Positions 17,301-61,500 of a stretch of DNA of 64,000 bases are shown piece after piece (the stretch's first letter is position 1; the number at the start of each line of letters is the position of its first letter). The DNA lies in the NCBI GenBank assembly GCA_002633005.1, contig NMRA01000179.1, positions 70,254 through 134,253 on the forward strand, in the 5' to 3' direction. The DNA comes from Phoronis australis (lineage: Eukaryota; Animalia; Phoronida). The notes under the pieces were generated by a model that worked only from the letters and a program-made list of their open reading frames with translations, was not told where the DNA came from and did no database searches. Made by a program: the position numbers and the translations under genes.

Positions 17301-20300
17301 CCACAACAACCACTGACAGTGTTCTGAGATATTGTGGTCATTCACTACAATGAAAGAAATCTTAAATTTGAAAAGTGAAAGAAAGTGGAATTATTATTTT
17401 TTGTCAAAATTGGTGATATCTTACCGGAATAGGTTTTACTTGAGTCAACTAGGAGTTCAAGTTAACTTTGGAAGTGAAATACTGCCCCCTGGTGTACGTT
17501 TATGTCCTAACAAACTGGGCAGAATGATGTACAGTGTTTTGTTTGACTATAGAATGCTAGAACTGGATGAAGCCATTGATGCACTCGACGCAGCCATCGA
17601 ATACAAGAATGAGGCAATTCACGACCAAGAGATGGAGCTGAAGAGATCCTCACAAATGACACAGGTGGGTAAAATATTAGCATCTGAGTGGGTTTTTTTT
17701 GCAGACAAGCCATTGGCGTATATTTGGATAATGTCAGTTTAAGGACCAAGACTAAGTTGCGAACAATTTTAAAATTTATCCACTAAATAAGTTTGATTGT
17801 TGCATGGTGCCAAATGCATTGTTTAACAGTGGCAATGTAACTTGGGATAATATGACATCATTACTGCTATCCACCATATAACTTTTATGCAACTGAATTC
17901 AGAAGTCAAATCAAAATACAGTCACTCAGATATATTTAAAGTGCAGACATAACCAAGGATATCCTAGTTTTACCACACCTGCTGAAATTGAAAACAAGAG
18001 TGTAGTCATGCAACATAATCACGTATATGGGTTGAAAGTTATGGTTTTGGTGACCATTTCCAGCCCATGAAACTGCGGAAATTTTTGGGTTTCAGCAGTT
18101 GCTTTCGTCATATCTGCCAAGTCTCACAATGTATCGATAACAGAATTCGACAGACATGTTTGCATTGTGGAAGGGGTGTCCATAGGCGGAATTAGGGGGG
18201 GCCCAGGGGGCCCGGGGCCGCCCCCCTTGGCTGCCGCAAAAAAAAAACAGTAAGAGCGCAGGGAAATGTTGAGTTTATTAATTAACCCCGGTAATTAGAA
18301 TTATACGGGTGAAAAAACATTTAAATGTGTGCAGTTTTAGTGTTGGNNNNNNNNNNNNNNNNNNNNNNNNNNNNNNNNNNNNNNNNNNNNNNNNNNNNNN
18401 NNNNNNNNNNNNNNNNNNNNNNNNNNNNNNNNNNNNNNNNNNNNNNNNNNNNNNNNNNNNNNNNNNNNNNNNNNNNNNNNNNNNNNNNNNNNNNNNNNNN
18501 NNNNNNNNNNNNNNNNNNNNNNNNNNNNNNNNNNNNNNNNNNNNNNNNNNNNNNNNNNNNNNNNNNNNNNNNNNNNNNNNNNNNNNNNNNNNNNNNNNNN
18601 NNNNNNNNNNNNNNNNNNNNNNNNNNNNNNNNNNNNNNNNNNNNNNNNNNNNNNNNNNNNNNNNNNNNNNNNNNNNNNNNNNNNNNNNNNNNNNNNNNNN
18701 NNNNNNNNNNNNNNNNNNNNNNNNNNCCGACCTCCCCCCATTCGGTGCTATGCGCATCTACAATGATCGTGGTTCAGTTTGCGCAAATTTTTGCAGCCGG
18801 ACAAAATGTTGGGCCCCCCCCCTTGTGATATCCTAGATCCGCCACTGGTGTCACCAAACAATTTTCTGATGGCTCCGTCATTCTGTGCCCCCGTAGTCAA
18901 TTGTGCTATTTTGGTGTTGGTATGTTGGAGGTTGCCTCCTTATCTGCCAAACCGTGCGAAGGAAATTTGACGGATATGTTCCTGTTGACAAGAGCATGCT
19001 AGACATTGATTTTCAGATCATTTTGCTCCCAAGTGTCAGATTTTATTTTTTAAACCTGCCACAATATCAACCAAGTTTGTTGAAGGATCATCGGTATATT
19101 TGACAGAAATTTTTTTTGTTAGGAGAGTATACTGTTGATGATTTCAAACAAATTTGACCTGCTATGCCCCCAAAAGGCAAATTTATTACAACATTTTACT
19201 CCTGGCTAGTTGTCTTCCAAGTTCTCTAAAGAAATATTGTGGAATTTTATTCTGTTAATAAGAGAATCCCTCTATATTTACTGGTGGATCCAGCTACAGT
19301 TGTGCCCCCTGATGGCAGTTTTCCAAACATTAGCACACTATATTTTTACCTTTTGTGTTGCACAATGTAGCAGACTTTGTTAGAAATTGAAGAACGTTTG
19401 ACTAGGATTCATAATACTTGTGATTCTGCGAAAAAAGCTGTTTTACAATTTCTGGACAAGAGGCAGAAATCTGTTTTATGTGTTTATATTGTGCAGTAGG
19501 TTTAGAAATGTGCCGTTACATTTCTCTTACACAATTATTTTTAATTATTTCAGAGTGAAGATAACCTGGTACATAAACTGAGTTCCTTGAGTGCAACAGA
19601 AACTAAGTCTCTGTTGCACAAATACTTTGAGAAGGTCATCAACCTACGGGAGACAGAGCGACATCAGGATCTACAGATCAGCGAACTACAGGTTAGGAGA
19701 TATAATCTTTGGCTACTCCAGCTAAATAGTATCCCGTTTCCTTAGTTGGTAAAAGTGCTGGTCTCCCTACAGTGTCAAAATTTGTTCATTACATTTATTT
19801 ACCCAGAAATAATATTCATGGATAGGACTGGGGATGGGTAGTCCCTGCTATATGTCCTGGTAATGTATTGATAAGTAAACTAACAATTAATAATACCTTA
19901 CACTATTTTGAAGGAAACTAATATGGATTGGGCGTAAAATGAACATGGCAGCTGTATTATGATTATCAAAGGGGGGTATGAGAAGGGGGAAGGCAAAGAT
20001 ACTTTCATGCAGTAATCTTTTCCAACTACTGCACCCATTTGGTCTATTTCCCATGACTTAGATCCTAAAAAAATCAATGGCAGATGTTAAGAAGAAAGGA
20101 AGAAAGCATGGTGGCACAAATTAATGAAAGTCCTCAAAATTTGGAGGTGCATATTTGTCTGAATATGGACATCAGCCAAACAGTTACACAAACCACTCTG
20201 CCTCATTTAAAGCTGCAATTAATGTCCAAATGACAAACCTAAGAGTTGTGTCTCCTTACTACCAAGTGCTTTTTTGTGGTGGATGGAACAGCGATGTTAG

Positions 20301-31992: not shown

Positions 31993-32393
31993 CAGTGGCG
32001 GATCTAGGATATCACAAGGGGGGCCAACATTTTGTCTGGCTGTAAGCATTTNNNNNNNNNNNNNNNNNNNNNNNNNNNNNNNNNNNNNNNNNNNNNNNNN
32101 NNNNNNNNNNNNNNNNNNNNNNNNNNNNNNNNNNNNNNNNNACATCTTACCAACAGCTTCTGTTTTTTCATCGTCACTCAGATTCCATTTTCTTTAAAAA
32201 ATGAAGTAAATTTTCTTCATAGCACTGTGGAGCAGACGACGCAAACGGGGTCGTAGTGCGCAGCGCCACTGCCGGTCGCCTGGGATATCGCGGGAGAGCC
32301 TATACTTAGCCATAGTTCCGTTACGAATGCGCCGTGTTCCGAATTTGACACTTGAAATTGGATCTGAGCCCCCCCCCCCTAAATCCGCCTATG
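31993..32393 (+). mobile_element. TIR family A, copy 2
   Basis: CAGTGGCGGAT...ATCCGCCTATG, TSD CATAT; 32142-32370 closely matches 60769-61000; contains N gap. Confidence 0.85.
32052..32141. other. Assembly gap (N run)
   Basis: 90 N. Confidence 1.
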
Positions 32394-35300
32394 CATATAA
32401 TTGCATATGTTTAATATCAACTGGTCAACGTCTTCCACTGATGACATATATCCCATGGCGGGAAAACAAAGAAATAACTAATTTTTCTCTAAAATACAAA
32501 ATTCTCCAATTATTTTCCAAAATAAGTGCTTGTTTGGTTAAGATTCTTTGTCACAAAAGTATTACACACGGTCTAAAATCTCAAAAAGTACAAAAATCTA
32601 TTGTACGAAAGAGTCGGTACCTTAATTTCATTCTAATCAGTTTAAAATCTGAAATCGTGTTTTCTTTCAAAAATGTGGACTGGGGTGTGATGTTTGTAAA
32701 CCGTTGTCTTATCAAAATTATCATATTGTGACTCTTGGCCATAGATTTTTGAGCTTACGTAACACTGGCGAGTGAATGGTAGGAATGACCCGTCCCGTGG
32801 TTAGTTTGCGATGTTGAATAGACTTTTTGTGAAATACTACTTACATGTGACTCGAGCAATATATCCCACTTCTGTTGACGTCATGGTGCTAACCTGTTAC
32901 TACCCAAAAGGGGTCCTGCTGAGACTCCGTCAGTTGTTAGACCTCATGCCGGATACCACGCGCAGAACTACACAGACTACGGTTTTGTCTCGCTTCCCCC
33001 GGGTTCAGATGGAAAATCGACACGAATTGCGGGTTTACCGGCAAACCTGAGTGGGACAAGAGTAACCTTACGTACATAACGATCTATAGCCCCGCAAGTG
33101 GAAAACAGTCACGTGGTCTTACAAATCTCAGGTGACTTCCTTCTGAGCAGTAACTTAGTCTGGCAATATGACGCCGGCGAAGGAAATGGGACAAAAATCC
33201 ACCCTTGCTGGTTCCCTGCGTGCCGCTAGGTTGTAGCCAGCGTGCTGGGTCGAGCTACGCACATAGGGAACCAGCGAGAAATTCACCTTGCTTCTGGTCT
33301 CGCAAAATGTCCGATAGAAACAAGTAGGAAGCCTGGGGCATGTTTCGTACCTCAAAATGGCGCTAAAATTCCATTCTGTATCGCTGCAGACCCCTATCTA
33401 GTGACGATCCTGGGCCTGCGCTTGTCGCCTTGTAAGTTTGTAACCGCCCAATAGTCATCTCAATAAACCAACGAAAACTCTGATGCTATCATAACGCCCT
33501 CGTCTCGTCGTCGGGTCGAGTGTATTCAATGTGGTTGCCCTAGATAAAGCATATGTTCAATGTAGCAGGATCGGCCCTAGACGATATAGGCGGCAGATTA
33601 TCGCCGGGCCCGGCCCGCCACGGCCGGCACCACGAAAGAAGTAAAGATATGAATGCAATCTGTAGGGAAGGGGTCCAATGGCCGTGAGGACTGGTGATCT
33701 ATTTTGCAAAATAGCTGAGATACTGTCGATGTGTCACTCTTGCTCCTTATTAATACTAATTAGAGACAAATGTTGTCTACGGTGAAGGGAATCCGCTGTC
33801 AATTCTAGCTTTGAGCCCAATAGGATAGGACATTTCATTCTTGCTCAACCACGTGAACAGGAAAATTGCCACACGCAAAACAAAAAAACCCCTAAAAATG
33901 AATATGTTTAGCTTTTCAAAAACTTAAAAGCACGTCCTCAATAGATCATTTCATTGTATTAGTATCGGAGCACTTGGTCCGGCAATTTTGGATATTGTTG
34001 TTTTAGGTTTTTTAAATATAGAAGTATGATGGTATATTTAGATTGACCTCGAAGGTTGTTGTTCCCTCCCTCGCACAAGACTATTGTGTTTGATTTGCTC
34101 TGCCGTGTGTAAATGTCTAATCAAACCGTCTTTTCAATTAAGAAACTGTTATTTTTATTTGATGAGCTTGAAATGCAAATTCGCTTCAGTGATTTTAATT
34201 AATATTGTTGAAATGTCTAGTGACATGGTACGTGTAGCGTTTTGTTATTATTAAGTTTTAACTAAAAAGGAAGTGGCATAGTCTTTGCCCAATGCCATGG
34301 CAACGTCGCTAAGCCGCGAGGGTTGTGGGCTGAATTCTGCCGAAAAACAATGGTTCATTGATTAAAAGTTCCGTAATCGAAATTCGATAGATGAACATCC
34401 ATATGGAACATGTAACACGTTGAAAAAGAGTTTTTTCCCCGAGCCAATAAGATGACGAGATTTTCGGACAAGATAAAAATCCCCAAAGTAGGCCTCACTG
34501 GTGTTTGCATAACCTACAGACAAAAAGCAACGAGGACTCCTCTTTCACAGCGCCACCTCTGGGGGAGCCTGGGTAAGAATGTAGTTATTGTGTTATCAAT
34601 TCCCCGCAGTTAGAAACAAACATCACGCCTAAGGACCGTTTTATTAAAGGCAGTACTCGTACGTCTGCAGGTCATAGCAAAACCGTTATAGGCGTGTTCT
34701 TGCTGCTGCGGTGCTAGCGTTTAGCGTTTATATTTTCTTATTCAGGAACTTTGAAAAATGTTCTGACTTTCGAACTTTGGAACACAATATCTCAGAAACT
34801 GCAGATCGGGTTAATATGAAAATTACATGTACTATGCTTTATGCATTTTTCTCCACCACGTTGTTAAGATTGCTTTTATGTTGGGACACTTGTCTGCACG
34901 AGTACATGTGACTACGGAAATATCACTTGTATGAAAACAATGGAAAGATGCATAATAAACTGAAACAGCGTTTTGAGATTTCATCCCAAACATTTTGTCA
35001 CGCCAAACTTTGTCATTTAATTTTGCTATCAATGTACGTTTCCTTTTTGCTAAATTCTACTAAAAATATATGGTATGTTACCCAGTTAATTGGTGAAGCC
35101 AAAAATCCAATTCTTCAACTTTCTAGTTTCAGAAAATATTTACTATTACTGGGTTCAAATCTAGTTTTGTAAATATTTGGCTAAGCACACTGGAACCCGT
35201 CCGTAAGGCCGTATCAAGTTTTAACGACCGCTTCCGTCCGCAAACCACGTTAACGGACTGTCTGCAAGCAAAGACCAGGCTTACGACCCGCTAAGACGGG

Positions 35301-35839
35301 CCTCAAATTTTTACAAGAATAAATAGAATATCAGAAGTCATGCATGATAATCTGGGAAAACAACAAGAAAATCCGTTGCAGAGAATGGGTTTATTATCAA
35401 CAAATATTCCTTTTCAAAATATAGTTAATCATCTATAAAATCAAACACAATGGGACAGCGCCTGGTTACACAATTGGTGTTCTTAAATACGGAATAATTT
35501 ACAATCATATCTGACCACATATACATATATTTTTATAAGTTAAAGTTCTCACATAACATTTAATAAATAGGGTGATTATCACATAAATCTGGCCAAGAAA
35601 CAAGTAAAGCCGATAGTACAATATCAGAATTCATTGACAAAAGACACTGTCTATTTATAACTTGACAACATCCGGGCGTACGGATGTTTACCTATGATCA
35701 TCCAGTTGCACAATTTTTGGTTAGTGTGAACAGTGGTGGGGTGTTCTTCCAACTTTGAAGCGGAGACATGCTGAGACCACGTGACCACTGGATCAACAGG
35801 TCCTTTGAGAGGATCCAATAATAAATTATTGATGGATAT

Positions 35840-36785
35840 TTTATTTGGAACTGTGAAATGCACATGGCGTTTTCCAGGTGCATGCCAGATGGAACGAACG
35901 CGCAGGCTTCTGGAAGCAACAGGGCGGAAATAAGTTAAAACTGCTCGTTGTCAAAAGTCACGTGGTTAAGCGATATCATGGTCAAACCAACAGCTATTTC
36001 ATAAGCCCTCTGAGGACAATCTACAATTGTTTAATGATTAGCAACAAGTAATATTATCACCTGTATAATATTTTAATGTAACTCAACCAAATTAATCATT
36101 CAGGAAGGACATTATTCCACTTGTATGTTTGTTATATTTTCATGATTTCAAGCCAGCACAATGCAGTAGTTCGACTAAGATGATGGTATTTCAAGCTGTC
36201 TCGCACCATTGTTCAAACGTCTGAAAGAGTACGTAACGTGAGCTACTTCGTACGTACTTTGGCTTTAACGCGATATAAAACCATTAACGAAGGGTGTGGT
36301 CGGGGAACGAGGCAGCTTTTGGACGAGGTATCCTATTTCTTTCCATTCATTTTGATTTCTTTTCCATACACGGTGTAAATCGGCCACACGTAATCTGTCG
36401 CGAGTCAGGTCGCGTGCAAGACGCAACGGATCACTAGTATTTTCTCACGGACACTGCGTTATTGTCTCCGACTTCTGAACTTGTGATACGGAATCATTCT
36501 TATTTTGGAATCAGTGCCCTCGACGACTGTTTTTCACATTAGGAACCGATAGCGAAAACGCTTTATGGGATCGTTGCTTTGTCAATTAGTCTGCAGCATG
36601 TGAACGGTAAGATGACGCGGCGATTTGCAAGGCAGAAATTATCTATTGTGCGGCACAGCGCATGCTATCCTGAAGTCGTATCTGTCTGATTTGATTACTT
36701 TTAAAAAAATTCCAATAACTTCATAGCTCCATGAACAACGTTTGATATCCAAAAGACTCTGCTTCATTGAGAAGGTCGAACAAAC
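35840..36785 (-). other. Probable 3' UTR exon of the neuropeptide gene
   Basis: Strong acceptor attttattttttcag at 36786-36800 pairs with the donor at 37142; AATAAA (minus) at 35840-35845. Confidence 0.5.
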
Positions 36786-37157
36786 CTGAAAAAATAAAAT
36801 GTTCCGTGAACGTTACGCGTATAAACACGGCTTGTCGTAAAAACAAAAACACACATATGCGGAGCAGCTTAGGCGAGGTCACTGAGTGCATTATGTGCCT
36901 CACTAGATAGTACACGTACAAGTGCACGATTGTGTGTTTGATGAATTGATCAATGTGAGTTTTAAAAAGGTCTGTCGCTTGTTGTGCATCACTAAATCAC
37001 AGGCAAACTTGCATGCTTTTTTCTGCTCTAGTCAGGCTCCGTTGACCCTCATAGCAAGAGAGTACTTATATCATTCTTCTTGAGCAAAGGTTTAAACTAG
37101 CTTTGTTGCAGTGAACATGAAAAAGGTGCGTGAAATGTTTACCTGTGGCAATCAATT

Positions 37158-37291
37158 CTAACCGGCTTGTAATAGGTTAGCTAAATCGGAAATAGTCAAA
37201 CTGCCCATGACGAGCCTGTTGCCACGATTCCGACTTCGCGCTCTCTCCAACGTGCTGATGGCAAAATCGATGTTGTCTAAGCCGGCTATAC
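37158..37291 (-). CDS. Neuropeptide precursor, second coding exon: CRH/DH44-like (or PDF-type) amidated peptide
   Basis: Strong acceptor ctcccttctttccag; phase 1 joins A|GT=Ser giving SIAGLDNIDFAISTLERARSRNRGNRLVMGSLTISDLANLLQAG*. Gly immediately before the stop is an amidation signal. The exon continues to a CAG|GTAAAC donor at 37143. Confidence 0.78.
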
Positions 37292-40200
37292 CTGGAAAGA
37301 AGGGAGATCTTGGTTAGTTAAGAAGATAGCTCTATCTATTGAAATATGCCATTTAGTTCACAAGCCAAATGATTGCATGTTTACACATTGCTGTTGGCAG
37401 CTTTAAAACTTTAATGTTTCAAGACATACGTTTTGGTTTGAAACACCTCATGACTGCGTAAAACAGATTTGAATATAGTTTTCGTAAAGCGAGCGGTGTG
37501 ACGCTTGTGTAGCATCCTCCAGGCTGCAATGGCATAGTTTTCCATAACAAAACAAGTTGGTCATTGCGTAACGTGATGAACAAATAAAACTTCTTGGAAA
37601 TTAAGTGCAATACGTCACTCTATAATAACAGCGTTTAGAGTGTAGATCGGCAAATAAAAACAAACATTGACGCGTGTTGTTCACTGACGTTATACTAATT
37701 GTGAACACCTTTTTATTTTGAAAAGACGTCGAGTTTTAGACGTCTTCTCGGCACAACAGTAAAGTGTCCATAAGCCAGAACCTTAACTAGAACCATTATT
37801 ATTTACTTCAACCTAATTCGTTCCAATTGCAAAACCGGCCACAGGTATCCACGCTATGTTTAGATTTTTATCCTTGCAAATATTACCACTACCCCAGCGT
37901 TGCATTTGGATATTCAAGCGCGTGACAGAGGTTTTGCTTTCGAATATTGCTGCTTTGCCCAACCTAGCTGGCTAAAAAGTAAAAATCGAATTAGGCATTT
38001 TCCGCTCATAAAATTACATGTATTCCCCTACTATGATAGGATTCTATCTCCGTTACCATATCAAGCCACTAAGCAAAGTATATATGCGCTTTTTTCGAAT
38101 TCGCAATTTAAGTGTTCTATCGTTCTTGTTGGCAAAAGACGAAGAATCCTGTCACTGTAGTGAATTTTATGTGACCGAATTTCTGAGACTAAAAGGTGTA
38201 AGTCGATTTTCGCGTTTTAGCCAGATAAACCTGGCGAAACGCAACTTTAAATTTTGTCTTCGATCCTGGTTCCAGAATGATATTGAAAACTAAAAGGGTT
38301 ACGTCGCAACAGTGAAACAATCGAACATTAGTGTACAGTGCGAACCGCAAAACGCGTCTAACAAAATGGAATGTCGTACTTTAGGATAGTAAATCTTTTT
38401 AATTACGAATTCAGCGATATTTATTTCCATCAACAGATAGACTGACTGTACGTGAAAGTTGGTCAACGAATATTCTCTAAACGAGACTAAAAAACAGAGT
38501 CAACGCTTTCTAAACTAATTAGACAAAACGACAACTGTTACAAGCAGTAATGGTTTTCAGCTACATAAGCGGAATTTCTGTAAATGAAAAATGACAATAC
38601 TGACACCGTTAGAGGGGAATTAATGAATATTTAAGCACACACTTGGAAGTGACGCGATAAACAGCCGAGTAGTGGTAGCATTTGTAAAGTTTAAGGTTTA
38701 AATGACAGAAATTGAGCACACGTTACATTATTTCCCATAATTGCAAACTGACGAACAGTGAATCTTATTTTCATTGATCCAATTATCACAGTTAGTGATT
38801 TAAGGAGCGCAGCAAGCCAGGAGCGAAATTAACTAATCTATGCTCTATAAAAAAATCTCTTGAAACCCATGGGGTTAGGATCTAAAAAGAAGTCCCCCAC
38901 TCGGTATGAACTAGCTAATGGGTAGGGATAAACGGGAAGTCAATTTAGAACAAGTTCAGCATGAATTGACAATTAACAGAAATTCCAAAGCGCGAAGTCT
39001 TAACCGTCAAATCTTGCAAGTGAATTTCTCGAGCGAACAAACAAAACTAACAGTGTTCGAGAAAAGAAAAGAACGCTTTTAGGAGGTTAACACCTCCTCG
39101 AAGGTTTTGTCTCAGTTGGTGGCCTGTGAACATGCTAAACAGAAACCGACTAAAGAACGATTTAATAGGTAATTAAGAGCCCTGTACATTCTCATTGTTA
39201 GACAGGCTAAGGATCGAATGAAAACCAATCTATTGTTCCGAACAATGGTAAGTTTTGTTGTTAAGACAGTAGAATTCTACGCGACTGCAAGATGGATAAC
39301 ATGTGGAACACGATCGCCATGTCATCGACGCGATACTCAACAAGCTTTTGTTTTCGAGGATACGTTTTATTCAGTTCATTGAAAGGCGTGACAAATCCTG
39401 TTTGATAATTAGCTTACTGACACGTAGTTATGACGATACCCAACAGTGGTTGAATTTGAGTGCAGATGCATTTCCCCTGAAGATTTGGTGCATCAAATTT
39501 CATTCACGAATGACATCCCGGGGGTGGCAGGCATCCCATTATACTAAGCACATTCAGAGGTCGGGAAAGGTTACTTTAACAAGCAAGAAAAGCTAACATC
39601 AAATATGCTACATTGCATTGTACAGACCAGGGACTTAACAGTATGCAATCTTTGGTGATGCTTATAATTTAAAATCCCCATTCGTCGTGTAACAATTAAC
39701 TTGTGGCTGGCACTACAGCGACAAAATTACAATCCAATCTCTCTGAGGGAATTGATCAGGAATGGAACTGAATGTCTGAGATGAAGAATCGATATAAAAT
39801 GAAAAGAGTTAATTGGATTCGGCACAGTTACGTCGTTAAATTACAATGAAAAAAATCTTTGTGCACGAACAAAACGATTTTGAAATCAAGACCTTAAAAT
39901 TTAAATTTATCTGCTACTCTAAACACGTCAAAACACAATATCCGTTTTCATTGTGGTGCAGTCATGACATAAATCCAAAACCGCAAACACACATGCATTT
40001 TTCAAAGACTCAAAAAACGCGTTCAATTCCATGCAATATTTTGTAATATTACTTAGAGTTCAATATGCGCGAATCATTTGATTATTTATGGTCAATAAAG
40101 TAATGACATCAAAGATCGACTAAACACTCCCATTAGTCCAACGAACTGCAACAGGTCTGGGGGGGTTACACACTTAGGGTTGGTATAGAAGGGTGACGTT

Positions 40201-43200
40201 TTCATAGAGGTGCTTTGTCCAATTAGTTTACGCACGAATACGTTCCCTTTTAATGTCAAAAGTCCACAAAAAGATCCACTTTACAACAAAACTGCACAGA
40301 TAGGCTTCATATTATATTAAGGTGTGCTGTGTCAAAGGAACATCATCGGCGAGAAAAGTAATTATTTGCGATAAGCCCCTGTGCGAAATCGAACCTGGAA
40401 CCCTCGCGGACGCAATCAAACGCTCTGCTAGCGGATGTAAATCCCACTCGAAAAAATGCAACGAATAAAACAGCTTGTGTTTTTTAAACTTCTACCAAAG
40501 GATTACTTTGGCAAAGAGTTCACGAAATGAAGATATAACAGTTAAGCTAACAACAAATGGTTTCCATTCAATTACGCTTGACATCCAAAGGGCGGGGTTA
40601 TATCTTCTCAACTATCTAAAAGGTGGGCAAACTAATTTCTCAGCGGCACACCCTAACGCCGAGTAAACTCCGGATAGCAGGCCCAGCGGTGTCACGTACA
40701 ATTATGACTTGTGCCTGTCATGACTGGTGTTCATGACGCAAGTGAATTGAGTTCGTGACAATTTTTGCTATTAAAGTCCTCAGGGACCCTACTGGACGCT
40801 ACCTCGAGACTTAAACGCGGAAAATTGGATGAACTCGCGTGCCATCTATATCGCCAGACTCTGTAATTGTCATTTTAAAGTTGTTGATCTAATAGATTCA
40901 TTAACCTAAAAACAAACATGTTCGTGCATTATACAAACTTTTTGTGTACTTCCTTATTTATGGCGTCTCAAAATGAATTAACTATTTCGTCAAAAAATGA
41001 ATATTCATATTGCCAAATTTGACTGACGCTGGGAAATACTAAACATGACATCGAGTAGAAGAGTCTACATCTGCAAGCAAAATGCATTCTCATAAGTTGT
41101 CCTGTGTTTTTCTTCGAGTTAATTCGTGGATAAGACAATAGTATTTCCTCAAGGGCTTTCAATGCATGCTGAATGAAATCTTGAGTTTTCTGAGGTGAGG
41201 ATCTAACGCCTGCTGAGTCGATTTTCTATTGGCACAACTGTCATGAGAGTACATGTAGACATAGTGCTCTCAGAGAGTCGATAATGACACACCGTCATGA
41301 CCCATGGTCAATGAATATGGTAGTGAGTCTAATTCCATTACGCCGAGAAAACGACAGGTGACCAGACAAGTCGTCCCCGATCCCATGTTATGTTTTCTAC
41401 CTTTAGATAAGTACAAATGCCCCGGAGCTCAATGAGAAGCTATGTACTTCATTTTTTTGAGTCGTTGCGTCCGTGTTCCGTGATTGACATGTGATTTGAA
41501 GCCTGTAATCTACTCCCACGTGTAAGTTATCATAGTCGTTTAAACCCAAACAGACTTTTATATCAGTTTAGAGTTTGATCAACGGGCCATCTTCTTTCGT
41601 TAGAAGTCGCGACGACCGATTTCATTGTTACCAGGAAGACGTTACGGTATTTATTATGGTAATGTCTTCCTGCTTTAACGCAGAAACTTGACGCGACGAC
41701 GATGTTTCTTTAGGAAAGATAACAAATGTCATAACTGATAAGCCAGCGTTGATATTTCTTCCAAGTTTCATGTCGAATACAGGACATTGGCTTCATTTTT
41801 TTCGAAATGTACTTGCGTTTGCTTTTTGTCACTTATTTCCGACGGACATGCATTATCTTTTATCACACTTGAAAAGTAAGAGTTCGCAAGGGTGCTATTA
41901 AACAGTAGAATGACTTTTTGTTTGCTTAAACCCTCGCCTTAACGGTAAGCCCTTGCCTCTCACAATGTGTCACGTATCGTTTTCTCCAATAAGACAAAGT
42001 AACACGACACGAATTCCGACAACAAGAGGAATCATCATCATTTTACATTCGGCATGACGTCACACCTTCATTTTACAGGCGCGTCATTGTTCTTAAGTTT
42101 CCATTCAAAGTGACCCAGGACTTATGACAGACAATTGGTCTTATGCTGCCACAACTTCACAGTTCCTGAATAATAGTTTATTGAGCAACTGTCAAGTGTG
42201 AGTCACTTGTCATGAAACAGACCCCAAGTTCACATCATACGTCACAAATTATGAAATATTTCAATAAGAGTGTAAATTGTATTCAGCTATCGTCGTTGGT
42301 ATAAACACGCGGTACTCAGTGGTCTGCACGCCGCGGGTCTTTATTTACGACGCAGGCATGCAGTACAGGTACAGCAGTAGCTATCACAGAACACTACATT
42401 ATCGACACAAGACGCGCGGTCCTCTAATGGAAAAGAAACTTTTAATTACGCGGATTTCACTGATATAAAATTGATCTCAACTTGTTTCTTACTTTAGGGA
42501 CAGGTGGCTCCCGGATTTGGAAAAAAATGACACCTCGTTATTGTTTGAGACCACGCTCAGCGCATAAAGTGACACACCGTCAAACTGTAGAGTCTGATCT
42601 CAATCCAAAACGAGTTGTCAGTTCTTTTCAAGAGGAGAAATCACTTCAGAAAACAGCTTCACAACGGGAAGTGGACCAATCTTCAGTTGGCTTTCATGAT
42701 GGACGGCTGCTAGAAGTCTTTGCACAAAATAAAGGCCACACATCGTACGCAAGCTTGTGCGCCCCTTACCGCCATCCTTTACCACAGGTGTACGTGACTC
42801 CGAGAATTTTGTTAAAGGGGCGATGCCGGAAAAACAGTATGATCGAAAACAATATATGTAACTAGATTAACCAACCGGCGCGTGCCACTGGTTTTCGAAG
42901 TATTTTAACTAACAGTTCATGGGCTTTTAATGGGGGATATATGTCTTTGTCCTTACAAACGTTCTTGTAAGTTATATGATGAATCATCTTCACCATCTCT
43001 TGTTTACGAGGTTAAAAAGTCACTATTGCATTCTTACGGGAAGCAAAATATGAATAGGCTAGGATTCATCGGAAAGTATTCGTTTGACAATTGTGAAGTA
43101 TACACGTTATTCTCACCAAACTTTCGGGCGACGTGGTCTTTCTGCAGGATTTTGCTTCATGGCAAAACATAATGAAAATCGCGGTTGAGTTTGATATTTC

Positions 43201-43907
43201 ATGACAAGACTCACATATCTATCTCCTGTAGAAATTTGCAAGGAAAATTTACATTGTAATTAGTCTTACTTCAAATAAAATATCAGACTGTCAACAGTTA
43301 CGCCACGCTGTCCTGTCGTCTAATACATGCTGTCACCAACCTATCCAACTTCAGCGCGCGATTCATCAGGAAATATTAATTGTCTGTGTATGATTGATGG
43401 AAATATGAACAAAAAAATTAACGAGTTGAAGCTTGATATCGCGCCATATTCTGCAATGCACCACCAATCAAAGACATTGCCATGTGATTTCCCAATTGAC
43501 AAAACACACAAACTCGTCGATATTTTCGCGACGCTTCCGACCGCTTACACCTTACATGAATGAGAAATCCAATATAACCAATTACACACTCGGTGTAGAC
43601 TTGGTCGCATTCAAAACCGTCGCAGATCGCGTTAATACCCAATAATAGAACATTCTTCACTTTCGCTACCTAATCGCCATCGATCTTCGACGCAAGAGTG
43701 TTTGTCTTACCATTATCTGAATTTGAAAAAATACGGAAGAGGTCACTTGTGGAACAAGTTCATGTGTATTATTGACGTACTAATAGTCCCAGTCATTGCT
43801 TGAGTGAAACCGATGTTTCTAGAAATGGGTCATCTAAACTATGAGTTCGTGTTGGAAGCGGATTATATTTTGCCAGAAAATGGTCAACACAGGTGTAAAT
43901 CATATTG

Positions 43908-44053
43908 CGTGGGCGGAGCACCTTAGGGGGTTCGGGGGGCTATAGTCCCCTCACTTTTTTCAGTCTACGCCGCGCATGGTATATAGGCGATGCACCACAG
44001 GGGACTGAGGGTCGCTTTAGCCCCCCACTTTTTTCAGTGCTGCGCCGCTTATG
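43908..44053. mobile_element. Degenerate MITE in the neuropeptide gene intron
   Basis: CGTGGGCGGAGCAC ... GTGCTGCGCCGCTTATG with internal direct repeat CACTTTTTTCAGT. Confidence 0.5.
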
Positions 44054-44520
44054 TTAATTAGGAATCCGTTTAAACCACTTCGAAGTTTTTTCCATTCTAA
44101 TCAGATAATTGAAATTATAAGTGAAAGAAATGATACGCATTTGAGACCGATCACGGTGTGTAATTTGAATCCAGAATTTCCAAAAGCCATGCACCTTTTC
44201 CGTAAAGCGATCCGGCACGATCGATTAATCAGTTTTCAAGATAAGAACTTACAACGCAGTCTTGAATTGATTTGATTGCTTCAAGTCATTCATGATTCGA
44301 AATGCCAATGCATGTGTTTGAAAGAGGAAATATCATGTTCTATTGAGAAATTAAACTTTTTATTAAGCATTTACGTCAGGTTAAGCCTGATAGGTTATTG
44401 TGAATACAAGACTCGCAGAGTCTTTTAAAAATAGTTTCAACATCAAAAATACGTTAAGTTTGCAAAATAGGATCTCGTGGCAGAGAAATAAAGAAAACAA
44501 CAAAAGCAAAGACAACTTAC

Positions 44521-44701
44521 TAGGTCTTTTTACCCTATGTCGGGCATTTACTGTCGCGTATCCTGGTGAGCGTTTGTGAAGTGCCAATGTCTTTTTGTGT
44601 ATTGCACGAGAGTCCACGGTAGCGTAACACAAAATCCACAGAATCAGCATCACGCAAAAAGTTAATCGAGAGATTTTCCGCAAGTCCATCACCGAATCCA
44701 T
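44521..44701 (-). CDS. Neuropeptide/hormone precursor, first coding exon (signal peptide plus propeptide)
   Basis: MDSVMDLRKISRLTFCVMLILWILCYATVDS-RAIHKKTLALHKRSPGYATVNARHRVKRP; basic N-region, hydrophobic core, KR and RVKR sites. Acceptor tcttttccag at 44718-44727 (exon starts 44717); donor A|GTAAGT, phase 1. Confidence 0.82.
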
Positions 44702-44774
44702 CGCACCTTTTCCGAATCTGGAAAAGACCATCACAGTTTGGTAAGCAAATAGTTTTTGCACTACTTTCACTCAC

Positions 44775-45035
44775 GTTAGAGCGCTGGCGAACACCGCTCA
44801 AGTTTATCGTCTGCTTTGACGTCTCCAATAACTTTATAACTTCTGACGCAAACAAACCTTTTCCACACGTATGCCTTCAAAATCAGAGTAAGGTAATTGC
44901 AAATCAAATATCTTATGATTCGGGTCTTTTTAATACAAGCCCATACAGCTGTACGTTTGATTTCTGTCGTTTTGAGAAGCCCCGTGGTCTTAAATACAAC
45001 CCAGGAACGTGTCACGTGTCAAAAGTGGTCACGTG
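44775..45035 (-). promoter_or_regulatory. Candidate promoter and short non-coding exon 1 of the neuropeptide gene
   Basis: TATAAA (minus) 44833-44838; AAC|GTGAGT donor at 44774 giving a 57-nt intron to 44718; CRE-like TGACGTCT 44817-44824 and TGACGCA 44844-44850; two GTCACGTG E-boxes at about 45011-45035. Confidence 0.5.
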
Positions 45036-47829
45036 GCATTCATTCACAATTTAGACACACCCACTGCGCGTGTAAACAGTGGTCGTGTGTCTTAAACTTA
45101 CAGTAACTGTGTGTTCAATCGTTGCTTTGATTTATTTGTCAATAAAAGGGTCTTTGACGAGTTTACATTAGGCACATTAAGAAAATCGTTCGATGCTGTG
45201 TGACACTTATACTGGGAAAGTAAGAAGAAAACATTTCCTCTAACTCAAAAAGGAACGCCTTTTTGTTGCATTAAAATGATCTCGCTCTCGGGCTTGCACC
45301 ATATTCTGATGTTCTGAAATTTTTACGTTTTACGTCACAGCCAAAGTGCACGTGTTGCAGTTGAGAAAGCGTAAATCGCGTGGAAACATCCCTCAAAATG
45401 AAATACTTGAGGAATTTCTGGAATATGGCAAGACCGTAGAAGACAAGAGTTGTTTCGCTTTCCGCACACTGTCGTCCTCTACGACAGCATTTTAAGGTAG
45501 TATCGAAGAGAACTGTTCACTCAAAGCGCTAAAGGAAATCAGAATGTTTTAGAATTATGAGTGTTATGTCAGATAATTACATTTGAGTACTGACATTTTC
45601 TCACCTGCCACTAAATGCTGACAGACGCTTACATTTGTATGTACCCACGTCCGGTAGCTGCTAACGACTTGTCATGTGCTAATACTGTTTCTCTAAATGA
45701 CGGATTTCTGAGTCAAGCTAAGCGAAAATACGTTGTGATTTAGACTGCTGAATCTTTACAAAACAAACCATACACATTCAAAATAGGAGTTGTGGTTTGT
45801 ACAACTTCAAGGTTACTCTTAATACCAAATTTCAAACACTTCTCAAAACGTCATGGAAATGTGCTGCTCTTTAAAAATGTATGACTTTGCTTTTCTTCAA
45901 GCTGGGTAACTCACAATGAGCGCCGTAACACTTTACGTCCACCTACTTTAGAGGAAAATTTCGTTTTGTTTCAATGACTAGCGATACGGTTTTGCCTGAC
46001 ATGTCCCAAGAGATGAACTCATTGACGGGGTATACAGTGTAAGGTACAGTTATCGAGCACAAACATGATCAAACCATTGCACGCGTTTGGGGGCAGAAAG
46101 CGACCATAACGCTTGTCTGTGGACATGCACAGTGTTAAAGAGTGACACTGCGTGTGCATGTCCTGGGAATCCCAAATACATGTAGTGCCTTTATTGCCAT
46201 TGGACACGTGTTGTTTTGATGTTATGTTCGACAGTGGAAATGATTCAACCTCTGTAACAGTTGTAGTATTCCAAAAGTTGACGTGGGTCCTTCTTTGTCT
46301 GGGGTGGGCCCGACTTCGTCCGCGGTGAGCCTCGTAAGCAACATTTGTGGAATATTAAACAGTCTTAAAACTTTATTAACGATGGTTTGAATTTGGTTCA
46401 AACTTTTCGACTTCCGGGACAAGAAGCGTATTTCAATCTCTCTTTAAAACTGTACCAGATTTCGCCCGGTTTAGCTAACTGAAAATCTAAAATGGATTAA
46501 GACCCTTTACTCCTATAAAATCGGCCTCGTAACATGTCTTACTGGGATATGATACCAGCTCAAGTACCCCCGCAATGTGTTCATGCGCCCGCATTTTCAA
46601 ATTTGCAATTTTAAGGTTATCCAATCCCAATAATCTCCGAACCATTTCCGGTTAGGCTGATGGTCTCGATGCTTCTGTTGCTGCCGGAAATAGAATCCTA
46701 TCTTGGCAAGGAATATTGCAGGACCGGTTTTATGAAAATATGACGTGCAATTCGATTTTCGTTTTTATTGGCCAGCTTTAAATTCATGACAAATTTTATT
46801 TCGATGCGTAATTGAGGCTAACAAAATAAAATCAAGACAAGAAGATTAATTACCAATGTAGACCACTGCCTAGTAAGAAGCATGTTTAATTTCCTCGTCC
46901 GGTCCCTCACCCACCCCCTCAGTCCCATCTCCCAAGGCGTAATAAGCCCTGCAGTGAAGGAAATATCGAAGCCTACAGCAGTTGTTGATATTGTTCACCA
47001 ATTTTCTAAGATTAGCGCAATTTCTTGCTGAAATTGTGTTTTATTTAGCACAATCTTCGACATTGACACCCGTGTATTGATGAATGGCAAACTTTGTAAG
47101 TGGCTCGGAACAATAAAGTAATTCCTTAGGTAAACAGCGGCCCACGTGCTCGTTGACAGTAGTATTGATTATACCCGTTAATGTCAATATCAAAAGCGCG
47201 TGCGCTTACGCGTGTGTTTACCGCACTGCTATTTTAATCGTACGCTACGCTACTAACTTCAGGAATCACGCAACGTTATGATGTCACTCTCAAATTTGAT
47301 TGAATTTTGATTGCAATAGAAATGTAACGTTTTAACAGGAGTGCGGAACTGCCTCGTACAAAGTGCATGCATTAAGGTCATTACGAATCGATAGCCACAA
47401 GTTAGTTTTACGAACGCTACAATTCAAGTAAAAGTTGCATAAGTTAGTTACAGAACAATGGTGAGGATTGTGCGACACTAAGCGTAGGCTTCACGTCCGT
47501 TGAAACACCTATAAACCCCCCTCCCATGACACTAAAAATGATTCAGACCACTTAGCGTTATGAAATTGGTCTCAAATTGTTCCTCAGTCAACTTGATCCA
47601 GTACTTGGCGGAAGTCTCTGACAGATCGCCAATGCTTAAGATCAAGCTTTACAAGTTGGCTTGCCACGGCGAGTCATTTCATGAACCGAGCTCGGTCTTT
47701 AGGAATAACGAACTACTAAACAGTTATTTGCAAATTCAGAAAAAACGTCCCATCAGACAAAAGAAAGAGCTGAAGCTAGTTTCATAACGGATTTATAACC
47801 GCTTTGAATTACATGGTAATTTTTGAATT

Positions 47830-55439: not shown

Positions 55440-57560
55440 TACCTCCTGTACTAAAAATTGGAGGATTTAAAAGGTCATCGCCTGCACAAATAATTTGGCA
55501 TCCTTCATAAAACTTAAATGATTTTGCCCTCACCCAATAAAAACCTCTCCTAGAAGTCTCATCGGGATTTGAAGTGAAACCTCATGAAGTAGAATAGACT
55601 TCAGAAAGTTATAAAGAGAACAATCAAACACAAAATGTAGCTCATCCTCCGCAGAATCGGTGTTACAACACAAGCAAGGTCTTTTGCTTACAGGAGTGTT
55701 TGCATAACGACAAGTTTCCAAGTGCAATGGGAGATTTCCTTATCTAAACTGGGACAAAAGAGATCGCTCGGAACGAGAGAAATTAAGCTTCACATACGGT
55801 TCGGTTACAAACTCGTGCTTAAATAAAATGTAGGTTTTTAACTTGGATTTGTTACAACAGACTCAGCCCAAACATGTTTCGAGCATTCAAGTAGTTTGTT
55901 TCTAGCCTCTACTATGTTACAAGTAGTCAAATTTTGAAATCAGAATTGCATGGCAAGTATGTTAAACAATTTTTGATGCCGTCTATCCATCCATTTCTAC
56001 CAACAGAGTACCCCTCTAGAAATTTCTTTTTCAATAACCTATCATCACCTGTGGTCACTAATTTGTTCCAAAGACGCAACATATTCAATTTAAATCTGTT
56101 TCCGGTCGAGTTCCACCCCATGTCACCACTAACAGCATGGGTGGCTGAAAATCGGTTGACCCTTAGATAAGAACGCATAGTTCTGTTTTGAATATTTTCA
56201 CCATTACCAAAATTTTCGTAACCCCAAACAGATGACCCGTAATCCAAAACTGGTGCCACACACGAATTAAATAATGTTTTAAACGTTTCGAATCCTAGAT
56301 TCTTGTTATCACGGAATGTTGAGCATATCTTCCCTAATATAACGCTCTACCAGAAGCTTCTGATAAGGTATTCAGATTTTCTTTGAAGCCAAGGTGTTGA
56401 TCCAGAATACCGCCTAAATATTTCTATGAGGACTTATAACTAACAACAGTGTTTAGAATAAATTCAAAATTGGATCTAGGCATAGCCCTAGCTCGAAAAT
56501 GGACAACGTTAGTTTTTGCCGTGTTTACAACCATTCTCCACTTTTTTCATCAGTTGTTTACACATCATTTTCAATTTCAAACGCAAGTGCAATATCGTCG
56601 GCGTAAACTATGAATTCAAACATTGTTTGGGCCACATTTGACGCCTTTAGCCAATTTTTTAATTTCCAGAGCTAAGTCATTTATATATAAGGCAAAGAGT
56701 GTAGGTGATAAAACTCCCCCTAACGGACATCATTTTCAGGAGTGAACCAACCGGCCACTGTACAGAGTGCCATTTAGTCGGATATAGTTCTCTAATCACC
56801 GGATTTCTGTAAATCACACGCTATACATTCTACCATTAATATTATGTTGCAGAAACTTAAAAAACAGAATTTCATGTTTCGTCCGGTCAAACGCTTTTAC
56901 ATGTCCACAAATGTCATAAAATGTAGACTTTCTTGTTTGAATTATTGATGACAGGACATATAAATGATCAATACAGGACTGTTGGCTTCGAAAACAATTT
57001 TCCTCGTCAACTAAAATATTGTTCTGCTCGCAGAAACCCGCAATTCTATTAGTCAAGGCGAACTGAAGAATTAATACATGTAAATATATAAGAGAAGTTC
57101 TGTAGAATTCTTAGGTATGGATTATAATTGACATTATACCAATCAGAAGCCATTAACGCACGTTTAAAAGATTCATGAAACAAACGGGTTAGAAAAACAG
57201 CAACAAATTCGAATCTTAGCACCTCATCAGGTATACATGTACAGTCATAGCCGACCACTTTGTTATTATTAGTTTCATTAAACGACATTTCTAACCTCAT
57301 CAGTAGATATTTCACAATTTAAGTCATGCTCAGTTAGAGCAATCGCAGATTTATGTTTTCCAAATAAAGTTCATCATCAAATAATTTATTTTCAAAACTG
57401 CTTGAAATAATTGTTATTTTCATTCATCTACAACAAAAATTCTTCTAGAGTATATTTTACTGTTTGAATCCAAGACTTCCAGGGGAACTTCACTGAACTG
57501 CTTTGATCCCAGTTTTAAAACATATGCTTAGAAATTCTTAGGATTGATAGTATTCAGATT
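55440..57560 (-). mobile_element. Decayed non-LTR retrotransposon (LINE) ORF2 remnant, RT domain plus C-terminal CCHC-like region
   Basis: Minus-strand motifs ENCFRSQQSCIDH, KAFD, VR*GGVLSPTLFALYINDL (about 56670-56730), YADDI (56591-56605), PVLDYGSSVWG, LHLETCRY...CLCC...EDELHFVFDC; many stops and frameshifts. Confidence 0.9.
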
Positions 57561-58527: not shown

Positions 58528-61500
58528 TTAGACTCTTCCAGAAACAAGCACCGGATCTAAGTAAACAAAAAGCGCTGGTGTTTACTTGTGCAGAAGTAAA
58601 TGAATCTGACGTCACGAGAAATGCACAAACAATTATCGTTGAATAAGCCATTAATTAATTCTAATTACGATATAATAAAAAATAATTTAGTATAATCAAA
58701 GAATTCTAAAATGCGCAGGAATGTTTTCACTGGGTCTCCTGTTATGTCTCAGGAAGGCAAGGTTAATATTTGAACTGCTTTGTTCCATAACGGGTCAGTC
58801 GAAATACCTTCATCTAAACGCTGTCGATGGCGCCTGAGTTCTTCGTTTTCATATTCGTCGGAATCTTTACAGGACGGCGTTGCTTTTTCGTCCATGCTAT
58901 TTTCAATCGGACTGTGTGATTCGTGTTTTGTCGCTTCGTGACGCACAATTCTACTGTGTTCGGTCTTTGTAACAATCCCGCGTACTCGATAAAGAAGTTC
59001 TTTTTTGTAATCGATTAACTGTTGACCTATTCATTATGTGATTTCATAATTAGTATCGTCTTCACATATAACATTCACTGCACTCGCAGATAATGAATAA
59101 TTTGCAAATGTCGATTTAAAGTTCACCATGTACACGTACATGTAGTAATTACCCGTTTCACATTAGTCTATCGTTTCAAACTGCACAAAAGCATTTTGTC
59201 AATCAAAAACGGCCCATGGTCCTTCGCTAGCAAGCAATGTCAAATCTATTAATAAATGAAATCTGGCTCACATTGACTGCGTCCTTTGGTCTGGAACCGC
59301 GTTAGCCAAGTTCATATTGCGTACAGATGGACGCTACGTTTGAAACAAATTTAGGCGCGTATTTTTACGCACTTACACCAAGGACACCTGTTTGTTTTTA
59401 TTCGAACTAATTGGGTCTTGGGACGTCGGTAATTGTGAATGTATTTTAGCATTCATTTGACAGGAAGAGATAGATTTAAAAAGAATGCATGAACTCCGAC
59501 AGGCGCTTGTTCATTACGTGAACACGAACTCTAGTAATTCATTCGCCTTTTCATTTTTGCATTTACCACACGCAAAGAATAGCGTGAATACTACCTGTGT
59601 AATGGTAGCTATTTTTTGTACATTCATTCGTGGTAAACAGGTGCTGGAAGAGAGAAATATGCTTCATATGAAACAACGTTAATTAAATTTTGACTCATAT
59701 TGAAACATAAATTAAGAAAAATCAACTTCAATTAAGCTACATGTAAATGGCACATTGGTGCACTCAAGTCTGCTTTCATATTTTTGACATTGATAATGAA
59801 ATTCTATTAATATGTCATCTTATGTTTCAAAATCATTATCGAACGACTGTTAATTATATAGTCTCGTTTCCTTTTTTGAAATACATGTATCAAGGGAATC
59901 CATTATCGTACGTATTACTTTACATCTGCTCAACATCGAAACAACATAAAATTCCTTAAGGTGTTATCTTAGGCCGCGAGCACGTTGTTATGGTATCTTT
60001 TTGCGGCTTTTTTCAAACCACCTGGCCGCACAGATATACACGGTCCTATATTTAGTCTTCAATGTGGCATAGTGTTCTATTTTGGTATTCGAAGGAGAGT
60101 ATCTGTTAAACAGATACACTCGTCCGATTGTTCTCTGAGCATTTTGCATAACGGAGTTCTCTTTGTTCCTACCGTTTTAAGTATCATGTTGCCACCAGAT
60201 CTTTATCAGTTTGACTTATGAGTGACCGGACGTCCGGTTCAGTAGACTTTTTAGGCAATTGGACATCTGTCCAGTGGCGGATATAGGATATCACAAGGGG
60301 AGGCCCAACATTTTGCCAGTAAACATTTGCGCAAAGCAAACTGTACATGTAGATGCGTATAGCACAGAATGTTGGGAGGTCGGGAGGGGGGTTTGTCCCC
60401 GTCCCGCCCAGGAAAACTTTTCTGATTTGTCTCTAAAAATCCAGCATTTTCCTTGATTCCTGAAGTATTATCCAAGAAAAAAAACACGGAGAACGTGTCA
60501 AACTTGAAAAACTGCAATTACCACAGACTCGAACTCACGAACAGAGCGCGAATGCTTTACCACTGCACCACCACGATATATATATTGTGCAATCATTTCG
60601 TAACAAATCTGTTGTATTTAAAATAGTCTTCAATTGCCCATACGACGAAATCCGTTTTTTTGTGTTTGCATTAATGACGCGATTGCTTTGGAAATCGTCT
60701 TAAGTTAAGGTTTGACAAAGAGAGAATTATGAGTTTCTGAGTGATTCACAAAGGCTTCGATTAAAATTCACATCTTACCAGCAGCTTCTGTTTTTTCATC
60801 GTCACTCAGATTCCATTTTCTTTAAAAAATGAAGAATTTTCTTCATTGCACAGTGAAGCAGACGACAGAAACGGAGTCCTAGTGGGCAGCGCCACTGCCG
60901 GTCGCCTGGGAGTATCGCGGGAGAGCCTATACTCAGCCATAGTTCCGTTACGATTGCGCCGTGTTCCGAATTTGACACTTGAAATTGGATCTGAGCCCAC
61001 CCCCCAAACACACTAAAACTGGACACATTTAAATCTTGTTTTAGCCGTATAATGTTAATTACCGGGGTTAATGAACTCAACATTTCCCTACGCTCTTGCT
61101 GTTTTATTTTTTGCGGAAGCCAAGGGGGTGGGCGGGCCCCCAGCCCCCCCTAAATCCGCCTATGCTGTCCTTGTAAAAAATCCGTTTATTCATAAGCACT
61201 GGGAATGGGGTACATACATTGAAGCGGTATATGGGACGTTAAGCTCTGAAGGGTGACTTTTTCACGAGCAGTTTCTCTATAATTGGTTGCCTTTTTTGAC
61301 AATTTTTTTACGAAACGATAGAATTTCCGCTTTAATTACCTAGAAAGGGTATGTTTAGATAATTCAAAACTATGGAAAAATTAAAAATTTTCAACTACAC
61401 AAATTCGAAGAAGAGTTGTGGAATGGTATATGTTTCTAAAACTATGGTTTCAAAATATCTACTAATTTTTTACAGCAGTCCATCTCTTCATGAACTGGGA

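Follow-up and report, generated by a model that had tools for sequence, protein, structure and literature searches.

Structure and transcription of the locus

In a window of 64,000 nucleotides of the Phoronis australis genome (all positions below are those of this window), a split gene of three exons is transcribed and spliced on the minus strand, as seen in the stranded RNA reads of a single study, in three of its runs. Exon 1 (44521–44970, minus strand), delimited by RNA depth, a joint at 44521 and an ORF scan, its 5′ end being an estimate, contains a 5′ UTR with a four-codon upstream ORF at 44944, followed by the first coding part. It is separated by intron 1 (37292–44520, minus strand, GT-AG, phase 1) from exon 2 (37143–37291, minus strand), which encodes residues 61–104 of the 104-residue form, including most of a predicted 44-residue peptide, with the last Gly codon at 37163–37161, the stop codon TAG at 37160–37158 and then 15 nt of 3′ UTR. 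Intron 2 (36786–37142, minus strand, 357 nt, GT-AG) lies in the 3′ UTR and its joint is crossed by 10, 6 and 20 reads in the three runs. Exon 3 (35000–36785, minus strand) is an untranslated stretch of approximately 1.8 kb with an approximate 3′ end; RNA depth is 5–12 over 35368–36768, reads reach at least 35038, and an ATTAAA lies at 35021, close to where the depth ends.

The coding exons 44701–44521 (181 nt) and 37291–37158 (134 nt) join into 104 codons plus a stop. Intron 1 has a GTAAGT donor and an acceptor made of a pyrimidine tract and CAG, and interrupts the Ser codon (A|GT) at position 2 of the predicted mature peptide. The RNA joint skips 7229 nt with CT..AC on the plus strand, which is the predicted junction exactly, and is spanned in all three runs by 6, 9 and 3 reads (5, 8 and 3 start points). 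All first mates of these reads are on the plus strand and thus indicate a minus-strand RNA, a rule that holds for most stranded libraries. The two-exon join proposed in the earlier note, with its coordinates, phase and frame, therefore agrees with both the sequence and the reads crossing 44521/37291, while the third, untranslated exon had been overlooked. A minor alternative exon, whose 3′ end lies at 41817–41860 (minus strand), is spliced from a GC-AG donor (GCAAGT) to 37291, its joint being seen in one of the three runs (7 reads, 7 starts); the frame check places an in-frame stop five codons ahead of the junction, so this transcript is likely non-productive. Frame-preserving joins between other donors and acceptors would rely on poor splice signals, and the reads list none of them. 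In the main transcript, the stop codon is located 15 nt upstream of the last exon junction, and under the 50-nt rule, by which a stop this near the last junction evades nonsense decay, the mRNA should escape it.

Upstream of exon 1, a promoter-like stretch (44990–45035, minus strand) carries two CACGTG boxes (45035–45030 and 45018–45013) and a TATA-like TATTTAA (44996–44990), to which a putative promoter function is given. RNA depth is present in the bin 44708–45174 and zero in 45175–46108. The Rfam search gave no match. The neighbouring kinesin gene matches the KIF27 of the mollusc Haliotis, its only match, with 37–72% identity per segment.

The earlier note had started the precursor at the ATG at 44701, giving 104 residues. 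Its frame and stop hold, but an in-frame ATG at 44729–44731 (minus strand), 10 codons (30 nt) upstream, extends the longest frame to 114 residues, and a further in-frame ATG at 44689 would give 100 residues; all three ATGs carry G at both −3 and +4. The mean RNA depth of 1.8–3.2 over 44708–45174, a region where no joint is listed, suggests that the ATG at 44731 is included in the mRNA, and the real start codon is probably the one located 30 nt upstream of the position proposed before. No ORF of the modelled mRNA is longer than the 114-residue frame, the next independent frame having 61 residues. One variant is listed in the coding region (37221) and it is synonymous, against seven substitutions and one insertion in the 3′ UTR, these being small numbers and the UTR approximately six times longer. 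A spliced non-coding RNA with an incidental open frame would be in agreement with the low RNA depth (approximately 3–12), the long 3′ UTR and the lack of a protein database record. The ORF being the longest of the mRNA, its sole variant being synonymous, and a leader, dibasic sites and a Gly-stop following each other in the textbook way on both sides of a real splice of 7.2 kb together make this reading extremely improbable.

Predicted precursor and its processing

The product of this frame is very probably a genuine precursor of an amidated neuropeptide, one having no relative in the databases searched. The predicted signal peptide (44609–44701, minus strand, residues 1–31 of the 104-residue form, defined by hydropathy) has a basic n-region, a hydrophobic core over residues 13–26, where the 9-residue hydropathy rises to 3.1, and small residues at −3/−1; from the −3/−1 rule, we infer a cut after Ala27 or Ser31. 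Both basic sites pointed out in the earlier note, Lys43-Arg44 (44570–44575, minus strand) and R-V-K-R at residues 56–59 (44525–44536, minus strand), the latter a candidate cleavage site fitting R-X-K-R, are found in the translated frame, as is the terminal Gly104 followed by the stop, which leaves a 44-residue peptide plus a Gly amide donor. According to established prohormone biology, the leader would send the protein along the secretory pathway, convertases would cut after Lys43-Arg44 and after Arg59, and PAM would convert the last Gly into an amide, a carboxypeptidase step being needless since the stop directly follows the Gly. The product would thus be a 44-residue helical amidated peptide, released from a secreted precursor of 104–114 residues.

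Pro60 stands directly after R-V-K-R, at P1′, and may block this cut, and five Arg are found within ten residues in the middle of the peptide. If processed differently, the precursor could be cut at Lys43-Arg44 only, leaving a 59-mer that starts at Ser45, or within its Arg-rich middle, leaving a 17-residue amide that starts at Leu87. Known examples of a cut ahead of Pro are myomodulin and pedal peptide. Lys-Arg-Pro junctions also occur in printed precursors, for example in a nemertean FMRFamide precursor, and nemerteans provide documented cases of monobasic cuts.

A single-sequence AlphaFold2 model of the peptide (mean pLDDT 78) has helices at residues 4–27 and 33–42, with the helix broken at residues 28–32. 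The peptide is likely to be a ligand of a secretin-type (class B1) GPCR. In keeping with class B1 pharmacology, its C-terminal helix would dock on the outer domain of the receptor, its N-terminus would enter the transmembrane core and cAMP would rise.

Searches and family comparisons

Searches with exon 2 kept none of 23 candidates among proteins of 77–2000 residues, and gave no match at E≤0.001 among 1.84 billion representatives, no PDB chain at E≤10 by sequence, no Foldseek match in the PDB and no usable match in the Atlas. No Pfam family was found with this exon either, the PDF family included, in a search run without a positive control for divergent invertebrate members. Exon 1 gave no candidate among proteins of 38–123 residues, no match in the Atlas and only two sub-threshold rows in Pfam. 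The queries were single short exons and the libraries are mostly microbial, so that these blanks show neither absence nor novelty. By tblastn, no paralogue was found within the window (best other matches at E 0.48 and 4.6), six short motifs of the peptide gave no match in the full texts of papers, and D-N-I-D-F is not in the supplements of PMC8557429 and PMC6188537. One metagenome locus, examined among at least 596 candidates, has a 9/10-residue match that was rejected as a homologue; it lies antisense to an 834-residue ORF of bacterial type and meets a stop codon. Since no database relative was found, the family assignment rests on comparison by eye. Selected patterns were also counted after shuffling the peptide 400,000 times; since they were picked with the peptide in view, their rates serve to rank the leads and should not be read as p-values.

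The headline of the earlier note was a CRH/DH44-like peptide, and a divergent CRH/DH44/ELH-type peptide acting on a CRH/DH44 receptor does account for several features. At 44 residues plus the Gly, the peptide falls in the amidated, helical format of approximately 36–46 residues of this group, its helices being those of the model, and like the starfish ArCRH (41 residues) it is a single amidated peptide at the end of its precursor. It opens with P-S-I, contains L-E-x-A-R, has a long N-terminal helix in the model, ends in L-L-Q-A-G where ArCRH has L-F-Q-I-A-G, and has V-M-G-S-L in common with nemertean DH44/ELH peptides. The six identities over 20 residues to a human CRH stretch hold by eye, the CRH string being that of the earlier note. 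In contrast, V-M-G-S-L is near the N-terminus in the nemertean peptides and at positions 29–33 here, and this post hoc pattern arises in 3.5e-3 of the shuffles; L-E-x-A-R, likewise chosen post hoc, arises at 2.2e-3, more commonly than the PDF-like patterns. The S-hydrophobic-D-L core and the C-terminal Asn, searched with patterns of our own writing drawn from papers and recall, are missing, as is the LTFH(L/I)LR motif, and the modelled helix is interrupted at residues 28–32. Pfam and the PDB (E≤10) give no match for exon 2, the only exon so compared, in searches without a positive control. The coding region is split here whereas the vertebrate and Ciona precursors are single-exon, a comparison limited to chordate genes. 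CRH/DH44 is the weaker of the two leads of the earlier note, and membership in this group is somewhat unlikely.

The two modelled helices with their short break recall PTH, which is built in this way. A peptide of the PTH/iPTH/QSGamide type that acts on a ‘cluster B’ secretin-type receptor would also be in agreement with the C-terminus, as phoronid QSGamide/iPTH peptides end in D-P-L-R-A-G and can follow R-X-K-R, and here N-L-L-Q-A-G ends a peptide that follows R-V-K-R, so that an L-x-A-G end and an upstream R-X-K-R are common to both. Unlike the iPTH/PXXXamide/QSGamide peptides (PMC7224569, PMC8557429), the present one lacks their highly conserved N-terminal S-D, their D-Q-R-L-A-E run and the Pro at −4, and its precursor stops at the Gly where the iPTH precursors extend past a G-basic-basic site. 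This assignment is very unlikely.

The second lead of the earlier note, a resemblance to PDF-type peptides, holds up better than CRH against the sequences printed in papers. An alignment by eye with starfish ArPDF1 spans 29 columns, needs two gaps of one residue each and gives 10 identities, among them D-N-(x)-D-F and three alternating Arg; D-N-(x)-D-F-A also occurs in AjPDF1 of a sea cucumber, whose AjPDF2 shares an L-L-(x)-[EQ]-A-G end with the peptide. Without gaps, the last 11 residues have three identical and six conservative positions with Capitella cerebrin. Although chosen post hoc, D-N-x?-D-F-A arises in the shuffles at a rate of 2.5e-5 and the anchored PDF-like ending, in a pattern without Pro, at 7e-5. 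The canonical PDF/cerebrin ending, [ND]-hydrophobic-P-[DNK]-hydrophobic-x-x-x-amide, fits only if the Pro is dropped, and the D-N-D-F near the N-terminus is present with one inserted residue, inside a predicted helix.

Compared with the echinoderm PDF-type precursors (ArPDFP, AjPDFP1a/b; PMC4772807, PMC6586643), the present one is similar in length (approximately 104–133 residues there), in its leader, in the D-N-D-F(-A) near the N-terminus with a stretch of alternating Arg, and in the ending, AjPDF2 ending in L-L-x-x-A-G. Their peptides also follow K-R. These, however, have 29–35 residues and a Gly-basic end, whereas here 44 residues end in Gly-stop, and each of those precursors holds two peptides whereas a single long one is bounded here by dibasic sites, an internal monobasic cut being possible. 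In addition, the introns of the A. japonicus PDF gene lie outside the peptides and are in phase 2, as computed from the listed exon spans (exons ending at CDS nt 77, 143 and 272), in contrast with the phase-1 intron inside the peptide here. With the protostome PDF/cerebrin precursors (PMC8557429 supplement), ours shares a single amidated peptide at the C-terminus, after K-R, the last 11 residues in the form hydrophobic-x-[ND]-hydrophobic-x-[DN]-L-x-x-A-G, and, close to the start, a run resembling A-G-x-x-D-N-[LI]. The canonical PDFs printed there have approximately 18 residues, nearly all with Asn1, and mostly a Pro near the end (−6), whereas this peptide has 44, starts with Pro and is without that C-terminal Pro, which some printed cerebrins also lack (PMC8557429). 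Judged by its sequence, the peptide is a canonical member of neither group because it is one long peptide, with no Asn1, no Pro near the end and a different intron. The same comparisons make it possible, at a little less than an even chance, that it belongs to the PDF or a PDF-like branch and not to another branch of class B1 ligands.

These likenesses could also be those of a secreted peptide that is specific to its lineage, is not truly homologous to any of these families and may be processed in one of the other ways described above. None of the searches gave a homologue, the likenesses are short, were picked out post hoc and are of the kind that amphipathic helices typically show, and the 9/10-residue match shows that such similarity can arise by chance antisense to a bacterial gene; the Pro at P1′, the Arg-rich middle and the monobasic cuts of nemerteans would agree with another processing. 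On the other hand, Lys-Arg-Pro junctions are present in known precursors, and a resemblance to PDF-related peptides is seen in two independent parts of the peptide, its N-terminal half and its last 11 residues; a lineage-specific origin is, in our view, distinctly unlikely.

Candidate receptors and significance

A bolder and unlikely proposal is that the peptide is the missing ligand type of those bilaterian PDFR-like (SEB-3/b-unchar4) receptors that are still orphans in animals other than nematodes, or an elongated PDF joining an echinoderm-like N-terminus to a protostome-like C-terminus. NLP-49, the ligand of SEB-3, may begin with a comparable Pro-Ser...Gly-Leu run. According to a 2024 review, no receptor of the PDFR-like family other than SEB-3 has been deorphanized; receptors of this family occur in nemerteans, brachiopods and phoronids. 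Receptors of the DH44/ELH, PDF and PTH types are also reported in lineages where the matching peptide was not found. The identity of the ambulacrarian ‘PDF-type’ peptides as PDFs is disputed, and an elongated PDF, if true, would settle whether those of echinoderms are true PDF homologues.

The ligands of secretin-type receptors are few and ancient, and several of these receptors are still without partners; a peptide mixing the features of at least two of these families would be a ready-made test ligand. If a hemichordate or echinoderm precursor on existing lists proved to be its orthologue, the finding would be routine; PDF-type (GI:187067819) and CRH-type (GI:281433636) precursors of the hemichordate S. 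kowalevskii are cited in PMC4772807. The locus adds an RNA-supported peptide-hormone gene, of a kind that sequence searches miss, and the intron placed inside its short mature peptide shows how such genes stay hidden.

Structure and transcription of the peptide gene

Both minus-strand coding exons of the proposed split gene (44701-44521 and 37291-37158) were recomputed; their coordinates, the phase-1 junction that joins them and the resulting frame of 104 codons closing on Gly-stop agree with the earlier note. The intron between them (intron 1, 37292-44520) has a GTAAGT donor and an acceptor formed by a pyrimidine tract and CAG. The RNA check of the 44521/37291 junction gave spanning reads in three public runs (6, 9 and 3, with 5, 8 and 3 distinct starts), all oriented as expected of minus-strand RNA. 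These runs, from one study and selected by species label, were read to 16-19% each, and the sampled individuals are probably other than the assembled one, since several fixed positions differ from the window; a single coding variant, synonymous, is listed in the reads. The RNA reads also show a 3' UTR roughly 1.8 kb long, with a further intron of 357 nt that begins 15 nt past the stop codon and is supported by 10, 6 and 20 reads in the three runs. The stop codon stands less than 50 nt from the last exon junction, within the distance set by the 50-nt rule for nonsense decay.

At the 5' end, RNA depth across 44708-45174 exceeds what a mini-exon would give and the reads list no joint in that interval, so that exon 1 likely continues past 44731, where there is an in-frame ATG. 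Translation from this first ATG would give 114 aa, the longest frame in the modelled mRNA (the next independent one has 61 aa), and the 104-aa product proposed earlier keeps its frame but becomes the form made from the second start. A TATA-like element is closely preceded by two CACGTG boxes and one related CACGTT, all three inside 30 nt (44990-45035, minus strand). In one run, 7 reads support a minor GC-AG splice that joins 41817 to exon 2; an in-frame stop lies five codons upstream of it. The region could be an alternative first exon, and its transcript would lack the signal peptide.

Low RNA depth was seen at about 41439-42839 (minus strand), around this splice. Elsewhere in intron 1, a short GC-rich repeat (about 43950-44056), likely a dispersed mobile-element copy, collects numerous reads from both strands that fit it only in part. 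Upstream of the gene, 46576-47500 has sparse reads, part of them from the opposite strand.

Precursor layout and predicted products

The predicted precursor has, in order, a leader (hydropathy to 3.1), K-R, a 13-residue spacer, R-V-K-R, 44 residues and Gly-stop, which on sequence grounds is the standard prohormone layout, and the gene very probably encodes a genuine neuropeptide precursor. Because a Pro follows R-V-K-R and the middle is Arg-rich, a 59-mer and a 17-mer remain alternative predicted products to the 44-mer; cleavage before Pro occurs in myomodulin and pedal peptide. The precursor would be secreted and cut by convertases, the peptide amidated by PAM and released, and its two helices would engage a class B1 receptor, leading to a cAMP response; by analogy, this route is likely. 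The single-sequence AlphaFold2 model of the peptide has two helices, as does PTH, and class B1 ligands bind both domains of their receptors. The predicted peptide probably works like a PDF/CRH-class hormone. A cAMP response is shown for sea cucumber PDF-type receptors with calcitonin-type ligands (PMC12638048), and also for PDF receptors.

Relation to known peptide families

With single exons as queries, no relative of either exon was found in Pfam, protein sets or the Atlas, nor of exon 2 in PDB by sequence or Foldseek. One metagenome match to the peptide lies antisense and was set aside as a chance hit.

The 44-mer matched five of eight family patterns, with shuffle rates of 2.5e-5 and 1.5e-4 for echinoderm PDF-type patterns, 7e-5 for the PDF ending without Pro, 2.2e-3 for L-E-x-A-R and 3.5e-3 for V-M-G-S-L, rates that serve to rank leads, since all patterns were chosen post hoc and matches are inflated by helix periodicity. 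Three patterns did not match, namely those for the CRH core, for the CRH C-terminus and for the PDF ending when Pro is required. The SEB-3 ligand NLP-49 may open with a Pro-Ser...Gly-Leu run similar to that of the 44-mer.

Families were compared by eye with sequences printed in papers, within the available parts of these. Starfish ArPDF1 shares 10 identities over 29 columns, with two single gaps, and starfish ArCRH has a similar ending (PMC4772807). D-N-(x)-D-F-A is common to the 44-mer and sea cucumber AjPDF1, and the C-terminal end of AjPDF2 resembles that of the 44-mer (PMC6586643). Lophotrochozoan cerebrins align in register with its final 11 residues (3 identical and 6 conservative in Capitella); V-M-G-S-L, shared with nemertean DH44/ELH, stands at a different position (PMC8557429). 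The CRH likenesses noted earlier, L-E-x-A-R and P-x-I, are present; for iPTH the L-x-A-G end is the sole likeness (PMC7224569, PMC8557429). The gene structure is unlike both comparators, chordate CRH being single-exon, in contrast to the coding region split here over two exons, and the sea cucumber PDF-type gene having phase-2 introns outside the peptides instead of a phase-1 junction (PMC6586643). Further sources were available parts of 10.1101/129783, PMC10508912, PMC7251081, PMC11521371, PMC7406891, PMC5860471, PMC5818035, PMC7235175 and PMC11004728.

Since CRH, PDF, echinoderm PDF-type peptides and iPTH each have a defining feature that was tested and not found, the 44-mer does not qualify as canonical for any of them. 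The earlier interpretation is partly supported: the split gene for a predicted amidated neuropeptide holds, and CRH/DH44 is the weaker of its two family leads. The 44-mer may be the orthologue of a peptide already in print, S. kowalevskii PDF-type and CRH-type sequences lying outside the comparison. A full-text motif search found no paper with its motifs, and D-N-I-D-F is absent from the available supplements of PMC8557429 and PMC6188537. A bolder reading, rather unlikely, is that the 44-mer links the PDFs of protostomes with those of echinoderms, or that it acts on the PDFR-like receptors still classed as orphans.

Neighbouring features

A multi-exon KIF27-type kinesin gene (308-23901, plus strand; 21 tblastn segments, 37-72% identity to Haliotis asinina KIF27, the only listed match) is convergent with the peptide gene, its start lying left of the window, and is useful as a synteny marker. 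A 139-aa stop-to-stop frame (55927-56346, minus strand) has no Pfam match and looks like a C-terminal segment of a LINE-type reverse transcriptase. Runs of N mark assembly gaps at 18347-18726 and 32052-32141, and 32142-32378 is 94% identical to 60770-61005.
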